Shown here: positions 44,581 to 53,157 of the stretch, one piece after another | Position numbering within the stretch: the stretch's first letter is position 1 | How the letters are laid out: every line of letters starts with the position of its first letter | DNA from: Chthoniobacteraceae bacterium | GTDB taxonomy: Bacteria > Verrucomicrobiota > Verrucomicrobiia > Chthoniobacterales > Chthoniobacteraceae | NCBI GenBank assembly: GCA_037190965.1 | Contig: JBBCKI010000029.1 | Span: 131,784-195,783, forward strand | Direction: 5' to 3' | DNA length: 64,000 bases | The notes under the pieces: model-generated | What the model saw: only the letters and a program-made list of their open reading frames with translations | Told to the model about the DNA's origin: nothing | The model's database searches: none | Translations under genes and position numbers: made by a program

Positions 44581-47250
44581 ATGCCTCGCTATAAATTCCC
44601 GTTCCTGGCCTTGATGACGTTAACCGTATTCGCGTTAACCCTATGTCGGCTCTTGGGCCAGCCGTTCGCGTCGGCGGAAAACGCGCCCGAGCCGACTCGC
44701 GTCCAAGTGGTTTCAGGGTTCTTCAATCCGAATTCTCCGGACCAGTTTCGCAATCTCATTGCGCTGATGCGCGACGATCCGTCGCTGAAGATCGAGATGT
44801 GGAGCGGGCTCTCGCTGCCGGGAGGCAGTTCACGCACGCCGATCATCATGTCCATCGCGGGAGAGACCTCGCCGGATTTGATGGAATCCTGGTTTCACAC
44901 CATTCGAAACGATATCGCGCAGGGGTTCTTGTATCCGCTCAATGAATGGATCGGCGACGACACGGACGGCGATGGCCAGATCAGCGACGCGGAAGCCAAG
45001 TGGCCGGGCTGGAAGAGTGTGCCGGAATTGTGGAAGCGCGTGGCCACGGTGGATGGCAAAGTCTACGGGCTACCGCAGCCGGGCGAAAACATGATGGGCG
45101 TGCTCTACCGCATCGATCTGGTGCGGGCGGCAGGCCTGGATCCGAATGAGCCACCGCGCACGTGGGAGGAATTTTACGACTGGTGCATGAGGCTGACCAA
45201 TCCTGGCCGGCCAGTGCCGGGCCGCGCCTACAATGATGGCCAGCGGGCCATCGCGCTCCTGCCTTACGGATTCACCTGGCTGCCGTGGCTGGAGACCGCG
45301 GGAGGCACGCCCTTGAAGCAAGTCGCCGTCGATTCGCAAAGCGGGAAGTCTTACGAGTTCTCCATGAACGAGACGCGGCTGCTCACCGAAGATGGACGCG
45401 ATCTTTCCCGGGAGAAGGTGGCTTTTCGGGCTGATTTCGACTCGCCTGCCGGCCTTGCTGCCGCCGGTTTGCTGCATCGGCTCCGCTGGGCGCCGTGGGT
45501 CATCGATCCGGAAACCGGAGATCCTTTTTCGCTCACGGAGGAGCAAGCGCGCGCGGGAGTGGTGGAGGCGGGAGGACGGCGCATCGTCTTCGATCCGGCC
45601 TCGGTGCAGGCAGGAGTCGGCCGGGCCCAGGGCGGCGCTCGCGAGTTATCGCCATTGCAACTGCTGGCACGAGGGGAAGTGGCGATGCTCACTTGGTTCG
45701 TCGGCAGCATTCAGAGCGGCACCGAAGCGGGCCTCAACCCGGAACTCATCGGCTGGTTCCCTTTTCCTGCCATGACGGCACAAACGCCGCGGGTGGTCCA
45801 GTTGCAGCGGCACTTCGCCACCATGGTCACGAATGTTCGCTTGCGTCCCAAGGAAGAGCGCGACCGCGTGTGGCAGGTGCTCGAGAAAGTAACGGATCGC
45901 GCCGCGCGAGACCAGGAAGTCGAGCGCTTGGTCATCTCCGGGCTGGCCCGCTTCGTCAATCCCAAGGACCTGCTTCGCTTGGGCTACCAGGACTATGTGC
46001 GGGATATTCCGCCGGAAATCTTGCAGAACTTTAACGAGATCGATGCCGGGCACATTCGCACGGAAACGGAGCCCTACCAAGGCTTCTGGCTGACCATGGA
46101 TGGCGCGCTCAATCGCGAAGTGCTCAGCCTGATCATCTCTCAGACGGGGAAGAATTTCGATTACACCTCGGCCTTGCACGAGATCACGAAGAAGGCCAAT
46201 AGCGGCGTCATGTTCGCCCGCTCCGAGGCGGATTTCGCCCAGCATCGCGGAACGGCCTTTGCCATCTTCCTTCTCATTCTCGCGGTGGTCGCAGCTCTCA
46301 CGGTGCTCATCATCCGCCAGATGATGGCGGTGCGGGCGGCCTCGCGCAGCGGGATGGTGAGCAACCCCTGGCTGCCCTGGCTGCTGCTTTTGCCGGCGCT
46401 CCTGCTCATTGGCCTGTGGGGGTACTATCCCTTGCTGCGCGGAATGGTGATGGCGTTTCAGGATTACCGCATCGCGGGCGAAAGCACCTTTGTCGGATTG
46501 GACAATTTCATCGCGCTGGCGCTCGACCGGAGCTTCTGGACCAGCCTGTTCACGACATTTTATTTTGTGTCGCTGACGATGCTGCTGGCATTCACCGCGC
46601 CGATCATTCTGGCGGTAATGGTGTCGGAAGTGCCGCGGGGAAAGGTCTTCTTCCGCACCTTGTTCTTTCTGCCCCAGGTGAGCAGCGCCCTGGTGATCGC
46701 GCTCATCTGGAAGATGATGTACGACCCTGCTCCGAGCGGATTGTTCAATCAGGTGATCCAATGGCTTAACCACTTGCCAGGCGTTCACATCGACCTGCAG
46801 TCGTGGTTGCTGGACCCGAAGCTTGCCATGCTGTGTGTCGTGCTGCCCACTGCTTGGGCCACGGCGGGCATCCAAAGCCTGATTTATTTGGCCGCATTGA
46901 AAGGCGTTCCGGATGATCTTTACGAGGCCTGTGAAATCGACAGTGGCGGAGTCTGGACCAAGCTGCGCCACATCACGCTGCCGATGCTGATGCCGCTCAT
47001 CATCATCAATTTCGTCGGAGCATTCATCGGCACTTTCCAGAACATGGGCAAGATCTTCCTGCTGACCTTCGGCGGCCCGGGAGAAACAACCATGGTCCTC
47101 GGCATGCGCATCTGGATCGAGGCCTACAGCAACCTGCGCTTCAGCATTGCTACCTCCATGGCCTGGGTGCTCGGAGCCTGCCTCATCGGGTTCACTTATC
47201 TGCAAATTCAGTTTCTCAAGAAGATAGAGTTCCGCAAAGCCAAGGACTGA
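44581..47250 (+). CDS. Fused sugar ABC transporter substrate-binding protein + MalF-type permease
   Basis: SBP-like N-terminal part (DGKVYGLP, PPRTWEEF) fused to a permease (FVGLDNF, FRTLFFLP, DLYEACEIDSGG EAA loop, HITLP). Confidence 0.9.
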   Translation: MPRYKFPFLALMTLTVFALTLCRLLGQPFASAENAPEPTRVQVVSGFFNPNSPDQFRNLIALMRDDPSLKIEMWSGLSLPGGSSRTPIIMSIAGETSPDLMESWFHTIRNDIAQGFLYPLNEWIGDDTDGDGQISDAEAKWPGWKSVPELWKRVATVDGKVYGLPQPGENMMGVLYRIDLVRAAGLDPNEPPRTWEEFYDWCMRLTNPGRPVPGRAYNDGQRAIALLPYGFTWLPWLETAGGTPLKQVAVDSQSGKSYEFSMNETRLLTEDGRDLSREKVAFRADFDSPAGLAAAGLLHRLRWAPWVIDPETGDPFSLTEEQARAGVVEAGGRRIVFDPASVQAGVGRAQGGARELSPLQLLARGEVAMLTWFVGSIQSGTEAGLNPELIGWFPFPAMTAQTPRVVQLQRHFATMVTNVRLRPKEERDRVWQVLEKVTDRAARDQEVERLVISGLARFVNPKDLLRLGYQDYVRDIPPEILQNFNEIDAGHIRTETEPYQGFWLTMDGALNREVLSLIISQTGKNFDYTSALHEITKKANSGVMFARSEADFAQHRGTAFAIFLLILAVVAALTVLIIRQMMAVRAASRSGMVSNPWLPWLLLLPALLLIGLWGYYPLLRGMVMAFQDYRIAGESTFVGLDNFIALALDRSFWTSLFTTFYFVSLTMLLAFTAPIILAVMVSEVPRGKVFFRTLFFLPQVSSALVIALIWKMMYDPAPSGLFNQVIQWLNHLPGVHIDLQSWLLDPKLAMLCVVLPTAWATAGIQSLIYLAALKGVPDDLYEACEIDSGGVWTKLRHITLPMLMPLIIINFVGAFIGTFQNMGKIFLLTFGGPGETTMVLGMRIWIEAYSNLRFSIATSMAWVLGACLIGFTYLQIQFLKKIEFRKAKD

Positions 47251-47254
47251 CCCC

Positions 47255-49600
47255 ATGCCCATTCTCTCCACCGTTGGACGCAAAAGCTGGTCGAGCCGCC
47301 TGTTTGTCTGGTTCCTCTACGCCTGCCTCTCGTTCTTCGGAGCCACCATGGTTATCCCGTTTCTTATCACGGTAACCGGCTCCGCGACGAACGCCTTCGA
47401 TTACGAACGTTTCTCCGTGCTGCCGCGCTTCACGTGGTCCCGGGACGACCGCTTTGTCAAAGGCCTGGTGTATTTCTTCAACGGCTATCCGGGCTGGTAT
47501 TCCTCACTGCGCAACTATCTCCCGGAGGTGCCGGAGAGCTGGACCTCATGGCGCACCGCCGGCCTGGACGAAGAGGGGGTGCGCCGGCTCTCTGCGGAGT
47601 ATCTCGACGCCTCGCCCGAGACGCGCGTTTTCCGCGCCCGGCAGGCAGCTGACTATGCGGAGTTTTCTCTGCGTTATCCGCTGGCGGATTCCCAGGCCGC
47701 GATCACGCCGGAACTCTCCTCGCAATTCATTGCCTTGAAGTACGGACAGCTTTGGGCGCAGAAACATCCTGGCGCTGCCACGAAAGCCGAACGGGAAGCC
47801 GGCGCGCTGGCCATGCTCTCGGAAAGCTGGGGCGTGCCCATCCCCGATTTCTACACGATCAACTTCAAGGCGGAGAATCGCGCGCCCATGGGACAGCAGA
47901 CATGGAGCCCGCCAAAGACACCGAAGTACGCCGACTATCTCGATTTTCTTTACGCCTTGCGGCACGGCTTCGGCACGCCGGGGGTTCTGCCGGCCTGGCG
48001 GCGCTTCTTGCAAGAGAAGGGCCTTTCCAAGCAGGAAACGGAGCGCCTCTCGCCGCTACCGGCGGATGCTTCGATGGAAGAACAGGCGCTCTGGCTGGAG
48101 TTTGCCCGCGCATCGGCTCCGGCCTCGCCGGTGATACCCTTTCCCCTGCGCCTGGTCTGGATCGAATTTCTCCAGAGCGACGAGGCTCGTCCGCTCCTCG
48201 GCCTGGAGGGTAGACAGCGGTTCGATGTCGCCCATTACAACGCGCTGGCCGGGACTCAGTATGGCCGGCTTTCCGAAACTCCGTTTCCGTTGCCGGTAGC
48301 CGAGTTCGACGGCTTGCGGAAAGCGTGGGACCGCTTCGTAGAGTCCCGCTATCCATTGCGGCTCACGACAATTGTGGTGAACGAGCAGACGCAACTGGCC
48401 TTCCGGCAGTTTCTGGAAAACCAGTATCATTCACTCGAAAACGTGAACCGCCTGCTGGGCACCCAGTTCGCCGCGTGGTCCGAATTCACGCTACCTCCCG
48501 GCCTGCCCGAGGGCTCCGCTTTGAACCCGAACTCCGAAGTTGATCGCGGCGATCTGACGCAATTTGCTGGTCGCGAGTGCCTTTCGTCAGGGCTCGCCGT
48601 ATCTAAAGATACGCCTCGCCCTTCCTCAAATCATCGCGACTCAGCCTCTTGCGCCAGCTCATCCGCTCCAACATCGGAGTTCGGGTTGAATGGCGCGGGC
48701 CGGCGTGAGGTGTGGATGGATTTCGTGCGCACCCTGCCCGCGGCGCAGCGGGAACTCCATTCGGCAGAAGGGGACTATCAAAAATTTCTGCTCACGAAGT
48801 ACGGTTCCCTGGCGACCATCAATGAAGCCTATGGCTGGCGGCTGGCGCGGATCGAGGAGGCGCGACCTGCCTTCGACGCAGCCTACGCGGCGACCTACTC
48901 GGCCCACGCGCTCGCCTTTACCCTCGACGCGCCGCTCTCCAATTATCACACTATCGCTCAATTCCTTCTCAGTCGGGGAAACGCCATCCCGGTCACGCTT
49001 TGGCTCATCTTACTGAGCATTTTTTCCTCGCTCACCATCAATCCTCTGGCCGGCTACGCCTTGTCCCGGTTCAATCTTCGCAACAAGGACAAAATTATTC
49101 TTTTCTGTCTGGCAACGTCTGCTTTCCCCGCCATGGTTAGCGCCATCCCCGGGTATCTCCTGATGCGCGACCTGGGGCTGCTCAATACCTTCTTCGCGCT
49201 CATCCTGCCTGGCGCGGCAAGTGGCATGAGCATCTTCATTTTGAAGGGATTCTTCGATTCGCTTCCGCAGGAACTTTACGAAGCCGCCACCATTGATGGA
49301 GCCAAGGAATGGCAGATCTTCGTGAAAATTAGCCTTCCGATGCTCACGCCCATCCTCGCCGTGAATGCGCTCAACGCCTTCCTCAGCGCCTATGGCAGTT
49401 GGGAATGGGCTCTCATCGTCTGCCAGGACAAAAGCATGTGGACGCTTTCGGTCTGGCTTTACCAAGCCAGCCAATGGTGGGTACAGACCCCGTGGATTAC
49501 CACGGCCGGATTCGTCATCGCCTCGGTTCCGACCCTCCTGGTCTTCCTTTTTTGTCAAAAGATCATTTTGCGCGGCATCGTCGTGCCATCCATGAAATAG
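47255..49600 (+). CDS. Sugar ABC transporter MalG-type permease with a large extracytoplasmic insert
   Basis: C-terminal AGYALSR, LGLLNT, FFDSLPQELYEAATIDGA, FLFCQKII; ~500-aa insert after TM1. Confidence 0.9.
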   Translation: MPILSTVGRKSWSSRLFVWFLYACLSFFGATMVIPFLITVTGSATNAFDYERFSVLPRFTWSRDDRFVKGLVYFFNGYPGWYSSLRNYLPEVPESWTSWRTAGLDEEGVRRLSAEYLDASPETRVFRARQAADYAEFSLRYPLADSQAAITPELSSQFIALKYGQLWAQKHPGAATKAEREAGALAMLSESWGVPIPDFYTINFKAENRAPMGQQTWSPPKTPKYADYLDFLYALRHGFGTPGVLPAWRRFLQEKGLSKQETERLSPLPADASMEEQALWLEFARASAPASPVIPFPLRLVWIEFLQSDEARPLLGLEGRQRFDVAHYNALAGTQYGRLSETPFPLPVAEFDGLRKAWDRFVESRYPLRLTTIVVNEQTQLAFRQFLENQYHSLENVNRLLGTQFAAWSEFTLPPGLPEGSALNPNSEVDRGDLTQFAGRECLSSGLAVSKDTPRPSSNHRDSASCASSSAPTSEFGLNGAGRREVWMDFVRTLPAAQRELHSAEGDYQKFLLTKYGSLATINEAYGWRLARIEEARPAFDAAYAATYSAHALAFTLDAPLSNYHTIAQFLLSRGNAIPVTLWLILLSIFSSLTINPLAGYALSRFNLRNKDKIILFCLATSAFPAMVSAIPGYLLMRDLGLLNTFFALILPGAASGMSIFILKGFFDSLPQELYEAATIDGAKEWQIFVKISLPMLTPILAVNALNAFLSAYGSWEWALIVCQDKSMWTLSVWLYQASQWWVQTPWITTAGFVIASVPTLLVFLFCQKIILRGIVVPSMK
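48524..48687. repeat. Palindromic element family B, copy 1 (164 bp), inserted in frame in the permease gene
   Basis: Ends AACCCGAACTCCGAAGTTG / CAACATCGGAGTTCGGGTT; central CGTATCT-aa-AGATACG; TTGAA recurs 165 bp apart (48521, 48686). Confidence 0.88.
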
Positions 49601-49763
49601 AGCGCTTTTGAGTTAAATGTTTACAATTATTTGCGAGCGCCGTGGGTTGGTGCGCGGCTTTTCAAGCGAAGCGGCTGTATTTCCAATACTGCCCGAGCTT
49701 GAAGGGCCGCGCAACGGCCCGCGCCGCCGCAAAGAATGTAAACAGGAATTCAAAACCGCTCTA
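49598..49763. repeat. Palindromic element family A, copy 2 (166 bp)
   Basis: Ends TAGAGCGCTTTTGAGTT / AATTCAAAACCGCTCTA (TA...TA); begins at the permease TAG stop; stems TGTTTACA/TGTAAACA, TGCGCGGC/GCCGCGCA, TTCAAGC/GCTTGAA. Confidence 0.88.
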
Positions 49764-49768
49764 TCCCC

Positions 49769-51214
49769 ATGACTAGTCGATTCCTCCTTGCCTTTTTCCT
49801 GGCCTGCGCGCCCGTGCCATCTTTCGCCATGAACTTGAATCTTGCGCGCCCCTACACCGTGGAGTGCTCGCCCCCGCAAACCCCGCAACTGGCCTTCTCC
49901 AGCCCGCAATCCGAAACCCTGCTGTTTGAAAAGGGGCAGGAAATTACGATGCTTTGCCAGGCGGGCACGCGGGCCATCGGTTTGAGCTGGTCCCTCCATC
50001 GCAACAGGGTTAAGAAACCCTTTCTAGAAGGCCAGGCGGAGGCTCTGCCCGCCAATCAGTTCAAGATCCGCCTTCCCACCGGCCAGCTTGAGCCCGGCTT
50101 TTACGACCTGCGTGTCAAGCTGGATAATGGCGTGGACCCGCTTGTCGAGGGGGTGAGCACTTTTGGATGGCAGGTCTCCTCCATGGCCCTGCGCGAGACA
50201 CGGCCGGCGGATTTTTCCGCCTTTTGGAAAGCCCTCGTCGATGCGTATGCCGCAGCGCCCCTTGATGTGCGGATGGAAAGCGAGATGAAAACTTATCGTG
50301 GGAAAGAGATCGGTGAGTACAACGCCAAGGAAGCGGCGCTGCCCGGCGACTACGATCCCAACGGCCATAAGTTCGACGAGGTGGAATCCTGCAAGATCAG
50401 TTATGCGGGACCCGACGGCGGGCGAGTTTACGGATGGCTTGCGCGGCCCAAGGGAGGCGGTCCGTTCCCAGGTATGATCGTCCTGCCCGGTGCGGGTTTC
50501 AACGCCCGGCCTCGTCCTTTGGAGCACGCACGGCACGGTTTCGTGGCTTTGGATATCCAGATCCACGGTCAGGATGTTGACTTGGAGAAATACGAGAAAC
50601 TGCCGGGCTACTATAATCAGTTCACTTACGAACCGCCTCAGGACTACTATTACAAGAACGTCTACCTGCGCGCTTTGAAAGCCGTTGAGGTGCTGACCAC
50701 GCGGCCCGAGGTCAAGAAGAATGAGATCGTGGTCGTCGGCGGCAGCCAGGGGGGGCGGCTGGCGATCGTGGTGGCGGCGCTGGATCCGCGCGTTCGGGCG
50801 GCCATCTCATGCATCGCTAATTCTGCCAATTACCCGCATCTCCGCTGGGTCGCCGATTGCAACGGCCTGGTCAGCCCGTTCGGAAAGCAGCTCCGGGAGG
50901 GGGGTGTAATATCCGACGGCACGGCACTTTCCGACGCTCCACCCGCATTTGACGATCCGGAGGCCCGCTGTGTGCGCTACTACGATCCCATGAACTTCGC
51001 CTCCGACGTGAAGTGTCCGGTCTTGATGAATGCCGGGCTCATTGATCCCGTTTCCCCACCCTTCAGCATTTGGGCTGTCTTCAACCGGCTGGGCACGAAG
51101 GACCGGCAGATCGTGGCCCTGCCAGGTCTCGGCCATGACTGGTCGGCGGAATTCGACCGGCGGGCCTGGCATTGGTTGGAGGAGCGCCTCAAAGCCAACG
51201 CGGGGACAAATTGA
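49769..51214 (+). CDS. Acetylxylan esterase / cephalosporin-C deacetylase family (CE7), secreted
   Basis: VYGWLARPK, PQDYYY, GGSQGG nucleophile, YYDPMNFA, GLIDPVSPP, LGH. Confidence 0.88.
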   Translation: MTSRFLLAFFLACAPVPSFAMNLNLARPYTVECSPPQTPQLAFSSPQSETLLFEKGQEITMLCQAGTRAIGLSWSLHRNRVKKPFLEGQAEALPANQFKIRLPTGQLEPGFYDLRVKLDNGVDPLVEGVSTFGWQVSSMALRETRPADFSAFWKALVDAYAAAPLDVRMESEMKTYRGKEIGEYNAKEAALPGDYDPNGHKFDEVESCKISYAGPDGGRVYGWLARPKGGGPFPGMIVLPGAGFNARPRPLEHARHGFVALDIQIHGQDVDLEKYEKLPGYYNQFTYEPPQDYYYKNVYLRALKAVEVLTTRPEVKKNEIVVVGGSQGGRLAIVVAALDPRVRAAISCIANSANYPHLRWVADCNGLVSPFGKQLREGGVISDGTALSDAPPAFDDPEARCVRYYDPMNFASDVKCPVLMNAGLIDPVSPPFSIWAVFNRLGTKDRQIVALPGLGHDWSAEFDRRAWHWLEERLKANAGTN

Positions 51215-51218
51215 CGGA

Positions 51219-52634
51219 ATGAGCCTCTGGTTCCCCACTCAGCACGATGCACGGGCAGATTTCACTTTTTTGGAAGGGCGATCGGCCCCGCGTGATCGCC
51301 CGTTAATGGCGATCACCGATAAGCGTTCCACCACACTTAGGTGGCGCGAGTGGCCGCGCGATAGTAACCGGTTGGAATTGAGCCTGGCCGTCGCCATCGA
51401 TTTTCCAGATTCCCCGGAGAACGAGCTGCTCGTCACCTGCGGGCCGGACCAAGGCGTGGTCGGACAACTGGAGATTCGCCATCCCGACCCCTACCAGATC
51501 CTTTCGATTCCGCTGGATCCCGCCCGGCTGTCCGGCTCGGTGGATTTGACGCTCCGGCTGCAACTCGCCTCCGGAAGTTGTATCTGGCTGTTCGCGCCCA
51601 ATCGCGAGGCGTCCCATGGATTGGAGTACCACGTGCCCCATCTCCACGTACCATCCGGGCCTCCGGCCGAGTTCCGATCGCGGCTTTGCTCGATGGCCTC
51701 CCTTCAGGCTTTCGGTTGGAAAGAGGGCTGTGTTCTCGAGGGCATTCATGCGCTGGGCAAGGCCGGACTCTGCCTGGAGGCGCCCCTGGTCATTCGCCGT
51801 CATCTCGATGAATTCGGCTTTTCCAGCGGAAAGCTCATCTACGAGACGCCGCGCAGTGAGCGCGTCTCCAACCGTCTTACTACCATCGAATCGACCCTGC
51901 CCTTTGCGCAGGTCGCCCGCCTGGATCCACTTCATCCCTGGGTGGATCTCGCCGTGGACTATTGGCAGCAACAGCTCGATGAGCTTGGCCAGGTTTGCGA
52001 GCATAGCATGATCTCCAGCGAGGGCGCCTATACCGTGGCCTATCCCATGACGCTCATCGCCCACACGCGCGGCGAGGAACGCTGGGCCGTGCTTGCCCAA
52101 GACTTGCTTATCAAGACCTTCGCGCATCTCGTCCAGCCCGAGGGGATTTATCTCCGCTGTTTTCAGGACGGTACACGCACTCATCGCAATTGGGCTCGGG
52201 GCCTGGCTTGGCTGCTTCTCGGCCATGTCCAGACCTTGCGCCACCAGCCGTCTCCATCCGCCCAACTCGTCGAACAATTGCTCCACCTGGCGGAGTTCGC
52301 CAAATGCTACCAAAGGGAAGACGGCCTTTGGTCCACCTACCTCGACGAACCCACGATCAAGCCCGATACTTCCGGCTCGGCTGGCATCGCCGCGGCTTTT
52401 GCCCTCGCCTCCGGCTCCGGGTGGTTGCCGACCGTCTATCGCGAGCGGGCCATGCTCTGCCGCCAGGCTTTGAGCGGGTGGCTTACGAGCGAGGGTTTTC
52501 TGGGAGGGTGTTCCCAATCCAATAAGGGTGGCGAGGAACTTCAGCGCAGTCCTTATAGGGTTGCTCTTCCCTATGCCTTAGGACTGCTGGGGACTTTGGA
52601 GGCGGCTTTGATGATACCCGAAAACCGAAGTTGA
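51219..52634 (+). CDS. Glycoside hydrolase family 88/105-like (unsaturated uronyl hydrolase fold)
   Basis: NWARGLAW, YQREDGLW, DTSGSAGIA. Start ATG 51219; the last codons come from the family B repeat. Confidence 0.8.
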   Translation: MSLWFPTQHDARADFTFLEGRSAPRDRPLMAITDKRSTTLRWREWPRDSNRLELSLAVAIDFPDSPENELLVTCGPDQGVVGQLEIRHPDPYQILSIPLDPARLSGSVDLTLRLQLASGSCIWLFAPNREASHGLEYHVPHLHVPSGPPAEFRSRLCSMASLQAFGWKEGCVLEGIHALGKAGLCLEAPLVIRRHLDEFGFSSGKLIYETPRSERVSNRLTTIESTLPFAQVARLDPLHPWVDLAVDYWQQQLDELGQVCEHSMISSEGAYTVAYPMTLIAHTRGEERWAVLAQDLLIKTFAHLVQPEGIYLRCFQDGTRTHRNWARGLAWLLLGHVQTLRHQPSPSAQLVEQLLHLAEFAKCYQREDGLWSTYLDEPTIKPDTSGSAGIAAAFALASGSGWLPTVYRERAMLCRQALSGWLTSEGFLGGCSQSNKGGEELQRSPYRVALPYALGLLGTLEAALMIPENRS

Positions 52635-52778
52635 TCGCGGCGGCCTTGCGCAATTTCCTGGGCATAAATGGCTTCGTCGAAGTGCGCCGTATCAAAAGAT
52701 ACGACCGCACTTCTCCTCAACCGTTTCTGCACCAGGCTCTTGCGCAGTTCCGCTCGCTCCAGCATCGGTTTTCGGGTT
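52615..52778. repeat. Palindromic element family B, copy 2 (164 bp)
   Basis: Ends ACCCGAAAACCGAAGTTG / CAGCATCGGTTTTCGGGT; central CGTATC-aaaa-GATACG, GAAGTGCG/CGCACTTC; alignable to 48524-48687. Confidence 0.88.
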
Positions 52779-52803
52779 AAACCCCTACCGCGCTGAAGTT
52801 GGC

Positions 52804-53157
52804 TCACGCGTCGATCCAGATGTCGCCGTTCTCGACCTTGAGAGGAAACATCTTGATGCGAGGCTTGATGGGGCACACGGAGGCGCCGCTGGTCAGGTCG
52901 AATTCCCAATGATGCCAGGGACACTTTAGGACCGGCCGGTCGTGGTCGCAATCCGGCAACGCGCCGGGTTCATTCCCGAGTACGATGGCTTCCACCCGGC
53001 CGCGAGCGATGGGCGCGCCGGCGTGTGGGCAGAAATTCAGCACGGCGTGGAAGGAATCACCATATCGAAGAATTCCGATCTCACGGCGTCCCAGAGAGAC
53101 CATTGTCGGTGTGCCTTCCCGCACCTCCGAGGCCATGCAAACCTTTTGCCAGCTCAT
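52804..53157 (-). CDS. Rieske (2Fe-2S) ferredoxin
   Basis: CPH...CPWH ligands; 117 aa; ATGA overlap with the amidohydrolase gene. Confidence 0.93.
   Translation of the reverse strand: MSWQKVCMASEVREGTPTMVSLGRREIGILRYGDSFHAVLNFCPHAGAPIARGRVEAIVLGNEPGALPDCDHDRPVLKCPWHHWEFDLTSGASVCPIKPRIKMFPLKVENGDIWIDA

Follow-up and report, generated by a model that had tools for sequence, protein, structure and literature searches.

A palindromic MITE-like element in frame in an ABC permease gene, and its relatives across a 73-contig draft genome

Background

Can a DNA hairpin in the middle of an intact transporter gene be a mobile element that landed there in frame, and what would it add to the protein? The question is raised by a permease gene of the ATP-binding cassette (ABC) type in a 64,000-nt stretch of contig JBBCKI010000029.1 (assembly GCA_037190965.1), hereafter the window, which is C29:131784-195783 of the source genome (labelled G000), a 4.21-Mb draft of 73 contigs with 59% G+C. 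The best-known cases of selfish palindromic DNA lying in frame in genes come from Rickettsia. The Rickettsia palindromic elements (RPEs; Ogata et al. 2000, 2002, as summarised in passages of PMC10969869 and PMC3733652) are in-frame palindromic insertions in genes, with about half of the copies inside open reading frames (ORFs) for three RPE families, according to the RPE passages of a 2024 review (PMC10969869). In-frame insertions of miniature inverted-repeat transposable elements, or MITEs, are also known in other bacteria (passages of PMC10969869 and of the Coxiella MITE paper, PMC5896051), and the contribution of such insertion to protein evolution outside Rickettsia is called largely unexplored in a passage of the same review (PMC10969869).

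Here, we describe a 160-bp palindromic element in the permease gene, the family of dispersed repeats to which it belongs, and related peptides in public proteins, and argue that the element is in all likelihood a non-autonomous MITE-type DNA transposon that landed in frame in the permease.

Results

The permease gene and the element within it comprise the following features (window positions).

47255..49600, plus strand: host permease gene, a 781-aa ORF for a carbohydrate-ABC-type permease, with the insert as residues 424-478
48521..48525, unstranded: left target-site duplication TTGAA, read from the sequence; the joint in metagenome contig X6 is ambiguous by 5 letters
48526..48685, plus strand: 160-bp palindromic MITE-like element, subfamily A, with the top nhmmer score of 53 loci (152.2 bits)
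48526..48542, unstranded: left terminal inverted repeat, 17 nt, 16/17 complementary to 48669-48685, its end conserved across copies
48669..48685, unstranded: right terminal inverted repeat, 17 nt, 16/17 complementary to 48526-48542, its end conserved across copies
48686..48690, unstranded: right target-site duplication TTGAA, read from the sequence

The permease ORF runs continuously across the element (...PEGSA-LNPNSEVDRG...PTSEFG-LNGAGRR...) and its frame is intact over all 781 codons. Element plus one TTGAA copy amounts to 165 bp, or 55 codons, free of stops in the permease frame; positions 48526..48685, translated in element frame +1, read NPNSEVDRGDLTQFAGRECLSSGLAVSKDTPRPSSNHRDSASCASSSAPTSEFG. 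A 55-aa peptide is the sole open frame of the 160 bp, which hold no transposase gene. Folded as single-stranded DNA, the element forms a hairpin of -49.9 kcal/mol (z = -7.3, 0/200 shuffles as good), and as RNA one of -83.5 kcal/mol (z = -7.7). The paired region spans about 48524-48687 and takes in the AA/TT of both TTGAA copies, which explains why the initial annotation, correct on the hairpin and on the single mismatch, had given a length of 164 bp and repeats of 19 bp: two bases of each TTGAA had been counted with an element of 160 bp and repeats of 17 nt.

Comparison with relatives of the permease delimits the same segment. Residues 250-650, searched against 5.8 billion proteins, gave 242 homologues; 120 were listed, and 20 of them aligned. 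Among those listed, full-length homologues measured 696-735 aa, none as long as 781. The 20 aligned sequences (697-734 aa, 48-68% identical to the query permease) all showed a clean gap of at least 55 columns over the inserted 55 residues, and residues invariant among the homologues were retained in the insert-bearing protein. The linker around the insert (LPxGxxxxG) differed among them in sequence and, by a few residues, in length. Source names of the homologues include Opitutaceae bacterium; the same-genus genomes compared yielded no permease orthologue, only paralogues matching the membrane domain.

The protein opens with an N-terminal transmembrane helix, continues as a helical domain some 500 aa long and closes with a C-terminal BPD_transp_1 membrane domain (residues 612-773, E = 4.3e-13), which is the sole Pfam match in the permease (P0001); Pfam placed no domain over insert residues 424-478. 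The 21-sequence alignment served to build an AlphaFold2 model with a mean predicted local distance difference test (pLDDT) score of 71.5. Scores were mostly 87-98 in the large domain, which lies after the first helix and before the membrane domain, and 31-58 in the membrane domain (residues 571-781), which is modelled with low confidence. In the model, recurring helix-strand-helix-helix units flank the insert (352-401 before it, 481-526 after it), while residues 423-479 fall below 50 (block means 27-36, against 87-89 and 86-93 in the neighbouring blocks). The insert is therefore predicted to be, probably, a disordered excursion from a variable Pro/Gly linker between folded units, and the usual topology of such permeases suggests that this loop and the large domain would be periplasmic. 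The initial annotation had noted what removal of the 165 bp between the TTGAA copies restores, had suggested looking for a clean 55-aa gap against orthologues and had placed the site in a Pro/Gly linker between two helical repeats; the alignment shows the gap, the model agrees with the linker, and a metagenome contig described below skips the same 165 bp.

Copies of the element are found elsewhere in the genome. BLAST with the element returned 50 matches in the source genome, and three rounds of nhmmer returned 45, 94, and 100 matches over the two strands, which merged into 53 loci on many contigs. From these, 27 near-full-length copies (142-178 bp matched) were picked and aligned with their flanks. 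Similarity among copies breaks off abruptly at a left end of CCYGAA... and a right end of ...TTCRGG, and the copies form two subfamilies, A and B, about 72% alike. The modal length is exactly 160 bp (13/27), and length plus 5 is divisible by three in 14/27. A 5-bp direct repeat flanks the element exactly in nine of the 27 copies and with 4/5 identity in four more, against 4.4% exact matches for cross-copy pairs and 0/27 at positions further out. The repeats are direct and not inverted, namely TTGAA/TTGAA (three times), TTCAA/TTCAA, and the non-palindromic TTTGA/TTTGA and CTAAA/CTAAA, with the target consensus T-T-N-A-A. Rfam had no match in 48400-52900, and a plasmid collection had no match to the element.

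One further copy lies in the window itself, some kilobases downstream of the permease, at the end of another gene.

52617..52776, plus strand: second element copy, subfamily B, 160 bp, between convergent genes, flanked by TGATA and TTAAA (3/5 alike)
51030..52634, plus strand: ORF resembling glycoside hydrolase family 88 (Pfam Glyco_hydro_88 at residues 383-519); its final five codons (PENRS) and its TGA stop are part of the left inverted repeat of the second copy

The second copy matches the permease copy at 73% identity (BLAST E = 9.3e-18), folds into a hairpin of -52.3 kcal/mol (z = -9.2), and is intergenic except for its first 18 bases (52617-52634), which overlap the end of the ORF. The initial annotation had pointed to this homologue, at 52615-52778 and mostly intergenic, as the sign of a dispersed repeat and had called for more genomic copies; the 53 loci settle the point, and the family is a dispersed palindromic DNA element, neither protein-derived sequence nor a product of chance.

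Shortened copies were also present. A strict search for the element ends gave derivatives of 46-94 bp in which both ends are kept and the middle is gone, as if deleted within the hairpin.

C24:49033-49088, C31:13558-13603, C32:56794-56859: short derivatives
C13:45480-45563, C4:111772-111862, C31:3419-3512: short derivatives

At C31:59977-60332, a copy is present in two halves (model positions 86-164 and 1-117) with about 167 bp between them, possibly a nested insertion.

Frame +1 was stop-free in 16 of the 27 copies, and the other five frames in 6, 6, 0, 8, and 7. Such a count raises the idea that the family has been shaped by selection for compatibility with translation and supplies new loops, as proposed for RPEs. 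In its favour, copies with the open frame occur between genes and in both subfamilies, the reverse frame -1 lacks stops in 8/27 with subfamily B open in both orientations, the modal length plus duplication is a multiple of three (165 bp), and in-frame insertions recur in unrelated genes. However, the excess of open +1 frames needs no selection because the copies share ancestry, and most of the count is accounted for by a founder in which one frame was open; by a composition estimate, about 12% of such frames are open by chance, which makes one open frame in six unremarkable. Moreover, just 2/27 copies are coding in the source genome, and among 1.84 billion cluster representatives a mere 36 match the peptide profile at E <= 0.001, most of them short ORFs. 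We regard such selection as improbable.

Contigs of four soil-metagenome runs (X2, X3, X5, and X6) were compared over 47900-49300, where stretches of the gene that no contig covers carry no information. Among the public sequencing runs listed as containing the sequence, none was an RNA run. A 580-nt X6 contig with 21 differences (~96% identical) joins 48520 to 48686, skipping 165 bp, with 5 letters that fit on either side; the joint has the look of an empty site with a single TTGAA, which is good but not conclusive evidence of an allele without the insert. Run X2 is another sample from what is probably the source study; one of its contigs covers 48651-48746 across the right junction with 0 differences and with 35 and 61 letters on its sides. 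This contig bears on whether a repeat copy was simply misjoined into the permease of a metagenome-assembled genome, an idea encouraged by the 73-contig draft and by the possibility that the best-matching public run is the genome's own source. Misassembly is argued against because the X2 contig spans the right junction without differences, and an exact 165 bp, a perfect TTGAA duplication and a preserved frame are not what a misjoin is expected to leave; we find an artefact scarcely credible.

The permease copy and the copy on contig C47 are 94% identical (BLAST), and since the permease copy is also the best-scoring one in the genome, the insertion looks young. A young insertion could be a real but recent deleterious hit that has not yet been removed, with the permease dead or impaired through a misfolded large domain or through stalling or cleavage at the mRNA hairpin. 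The age of the copy, the allele without the insert in another metagenome, the RNA hairpin of -83.5 kcal/mol, and the many paralogous permeases that could cover a loss all speak for such damage. Against it stand the intact 781-codon frame with its homologue-invariant residues, the position in a variable-length linker between confidently folded units, and the in-frame presence of the element in at least three other proteins elsewhere (see below). On balance, we consider a dead or impaired permease rather unlikely, though the most serious of the alternatives; under the main reading the insert-bearing protein would still be made and would work.

How often copies fall inside genes was assessed at every locus by listing the stop-to-stop frames through the copy, running Pfam on 17 frames, and comparing the coding signal on both sides; the codon-usage model separates sense from antisense weakly (0.29 versus 0.11-0.16 per codon) and was used for frame comparison alone. 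The permease locus was the only one of 53 with a coding signal in the same frame on both sides. In total, coding sequence contains two of the 27 near-full-length copies (2/53 loci), each read in frame +1. The other case, C47:10862-11024, is in a gene for a flavin adenine dinucleotide (FAD) oxidoreductase, where the element sits at codon 9: a GAGGG Shine-Dalgarno motif, ATG, and 8 codons precede an element flanked by TTTGA/TTTGA, after which the protein continues with DVIVCGGGPSG. A Pfam FAD_oxidored match starts at residue 89, directly past the element, and about 50 relatives align only from residues ~86-88 on, and thus this copy is, judging by the sequence, very probably coding. No copy was seen to split a gene out of frame among the loci examined, by what is a crude test.

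Several other frames through copies were considered as insertions and rejected. At C2, C42:27532, C50:28065, and C70, the Pfam domains begin well downstream and the copies precede real genes. On C66, a 1035-aa ORF through a copy has no Pfam match and is the antisense shadow of a topoisomerase gene, with the copy about 30 bp beyond that gene's stop. This shadow ORF (C66:1943-5047, L075), which relatives match only with internal stops, is one that annotation could mistake for a gene.

The majority of copies lie between genes, frequently directly after a stop codon; this fits the target consensus TTNAA, in which an A or G at N gives a TAA or TGA. At several loci the gene upstream terminates in the left duplication or at the TGA of the GTTGATC in the element's left end, and the element may thus repeatedly supply, or sit on, stop codons.

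Window 52617-52634; C18:22416; C51:19336; C65:10286; C71:3245; C23:24899: genes ending in the left duplication or the left end of a copy

Beyond the source genome, the peptide was sought in public proteins in two ways. A 59-aa stretch searched among longer proteins matched 8 others, and a profile made from 15 translations in frame +1 gave, over the 1.84 billion cluster representatives, 36 matches at E <= 0.001 and 18 at E <= 1e-10. The profile matches are mostly short ORFs that resemble gene calls over intergenic copies, and four are multi-stretch, low-complexity sequences. Four host proteins carry the peptide as follows.

P0121, AraC regulator, 347 aa: peptide at residues 77-131, between a cupin match (21-74) and a helix-turn-helix match (261-338)
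P0122, LmbE-like deacetylase, 307 aa: peptide at residues 100-154; an orthologue at C29:92390-93139 of the source genome is contiguous without the insert
P0139, VOC/glyoxalase protein, 186 aa: peptide at residues 74-128, inside a domain match spanning 7-181
P0123, XdhC-MobA fusion: peptide near the C-terminus

Orthologues of the AraC regulator, in genome G003 (contig C102) and on contig C18 of the source genome, are likewise contiguous without the insert. As the protein searches used frame +1 only, these public in-frame cases are a lower bound biased to that frame. In a further protein, P0128, the peptide stands between MTNVRTPPF and a lipoprotein signal (…LALAGCSS…), probably an over-extended gene call across an upstream copy.

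At the level of genomes, BLAST detected the element in 3 of 60 others searched, namely in two genomes from genus g7 and in one of the two from g8 (82-87% identity), and did not find it in any of the five same-genus genomes (G001-G005); with at most 13 candidates scored per genome, copy numbers in other genomes are lower bounds. This patchy distribution suits a mobile element, and presence in two other genera of the family (G011, G012, and G051) together with absence from the same genus hints at horizontal spread.

Discussion

The element has the marks of a MITE, being small and without a transposase gene, with terminal inverted repeats, a target duplication, and many dispersed copies. Under the transposon reading, it would integrate at AT-rich TTNAA-like pentamers and duplicate them, presumably by cut-and-paste or copy-in with a DDE transposase supplied in trans, as its anatomy suggests. 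In a genome of 59% G+C, TTNAA-like sites would be found chiefly at stop codons or directly beyond them, which would account for the mainly intergenic position of the copies. One copy, apparently recent, has landed on the TTGAA of the codons Leu-Asn in the variable Pro/Gly linker of the permease, and because element and duplication add 165 bp with frame +1 free of stops, the gene stays open. It gains 55 residues, probably disordered, as a loop that joins two folded helical units within the large domain outside the membrane. In-frame copies would then be survivors of selection against disruptive insertions and not the outcome of targeting.

Several observations weigh against this account. The searches turned up no autonomous element sharing these inverted repeats, and no two element ends 0.3-6 kb apart in the genome; the ends were sought with a strict pattern, which replaced a loose one whose matches (at least 1002) were mostly random. 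Neither an IS1380 transposase (NF033539, PF13701) nor an rve transposase was found in the source genome, and its sole DDE_Tnp_1 gene, C34:112550-114118, has ends unrelated to the element. The empty-site contig from X6 has a short side of 26 letters, and sides below 30 can mislead. A hairpin of -83.5 kcal/mol in the mRNA could impair expression, and because the insertion looks young, its persistence is weak evidence of tolerance.

The search for a parent transposase gave little else. The DDE_Tnp_1 gene on C34 was rejected as a parent, as it is IS1182-like, with imperfect inverted repeats of ~32 bp and no similarity to the element. Among the other genomes with the element (G011, G012, and G051), the strict end pattern gave 3 matches, all in G011, and an IS1380 search in G012 gave only a 139-aa fragment below the family cut-off. 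A repeated insertion sequence (IS) could be missing from the assembly because it is a 73-contig draft. Elements of the IS1380/ISEcp1 kind have ends that begin with CC and make 4-5-bp duplications at AT-rich targets. The CCCGAA ends and TTNAA duplications described here would fit these features, and we offer an IS1380 link as a guess, a lead and not a finding.

A hairpin of this length also brings to mind repetitive extragenic palindromes (REPs) and REPINs, which would have been moved by a REP-associated tyrosine (RAYT, Y1) transposase in place of a DDE enzyme. Four Y1_Tnp matches occur in the source genome, and GTAG-tagged REPs are abundant in the verrucomicrobium O. terrae, as a passage of PMC3733652 has it. 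However, the element is flanked by a 5-bp direct target duplication, its ends read CCCGAA with no GTAG or CGTC tag, its 160 bp are far above the 20-40 bp given for REPs in the same passage (PMC3733652), and no Y1_Tnp gene adjoins any copy, the nearest being ~8 kb off on contig C43. An origin as a REP or REPIN is very improbable, and a MITE-type transposon remains the better description.

Among known systems, RPEs as described in passages of the cited summaries are alike in being dispersed palindromic repeats of about 150 bp with an open frame, found in frame in unrelated genes, where they add a peptide to otherwise intact proteins. The likeness drawn here is one of description. Unlike RPEs, of which about half lie in ORFs for three families according to the review cited above, the element is rarely inserted in genes (2/27 copies; 2/53 loci), it has clear inverted repeats with a 5-bp target duplication, and its homologues come, by their database names, from soil Opitutaceae, whereas the RPE host is an obligate intracellular alphaproteobacterium. 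Similar in habit are QMITE1/2 of Coxiella (passages of PMC5896051) and the intragenic ERIC and Anabaena MITEs (as cited in passages of PMC10969869), which are likewise small and non-autonomous, with inverted and direct repeats; they lie mainly between genes, and now and then one is inserted in frame midway along a gene or at its 3' end. The second window copy, from which a gene takes its final codons and its stop, parallels QMITE2 in enhC as told in a passage of PMC5896051. In contrast to those MITEs, the element forms a sequence family of its own, without a match in Rfam, and has a TTNAA-like 5-bp duplication and a palindrome over its whole length. Viewed together, RPEs are an extreme case of in-frame MITE insertion.

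These comparisons qualify the proposal in the initial annotation of an RPE-like, protein-inserting verrucomicrobial family. The in-frame placement in the permease and in unrelated public proteins agrees with it, while the low coding fraction (2/27) and the ordinary MITE marks do not; the word verrucomicrobial draws on the source names of homologues, e.g., Opitutaceae bacterium, and on those names only. Word searches of open-access text retrieved nothing that describes such an element for Verrucomicrobia or Opitutaceae. The permease insertion itself is well supported and sharply bounded; it is an event of a kind already known, from a repeat family that those searches did not find described.

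A wider reading is a tentative possibility, namely that an RPE-like, translation-compatible palindromic transposon family is now active in free-living soil Verrucomicrobiota, with filled and empty alleles coexisting and with 55-aa loops added repeatedly to a working transporter, a regulator, and three kinds of enzyme. If true, how proteins tolerate selfish DNA and how new loops arise would become directly testable outside obligate intracellular bacteria. The permease event is unusually clean in this respect, given its exact boundaries, target duplication, insert-free metagenome allele, and the insert-free orthologues available for two further hosts. In addition, the family explains some oddities of annotation, such as gene calls over intergenic copies and genes that end in codons and a stop taken from a copy, and the element may serve as a strain marker.

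Additional observations

The insert-bearing gene is one of two adjacent, unusual ABC permeases in the window (44581-47250 and 47255-49600). The first of these, of 889 aa, is a fusion of an SBP_bac_1 solute-binding domain to a BPD_transp_1 permease. Many paralogous permeases of 560-720 aa are present in the source genome and its relatives.

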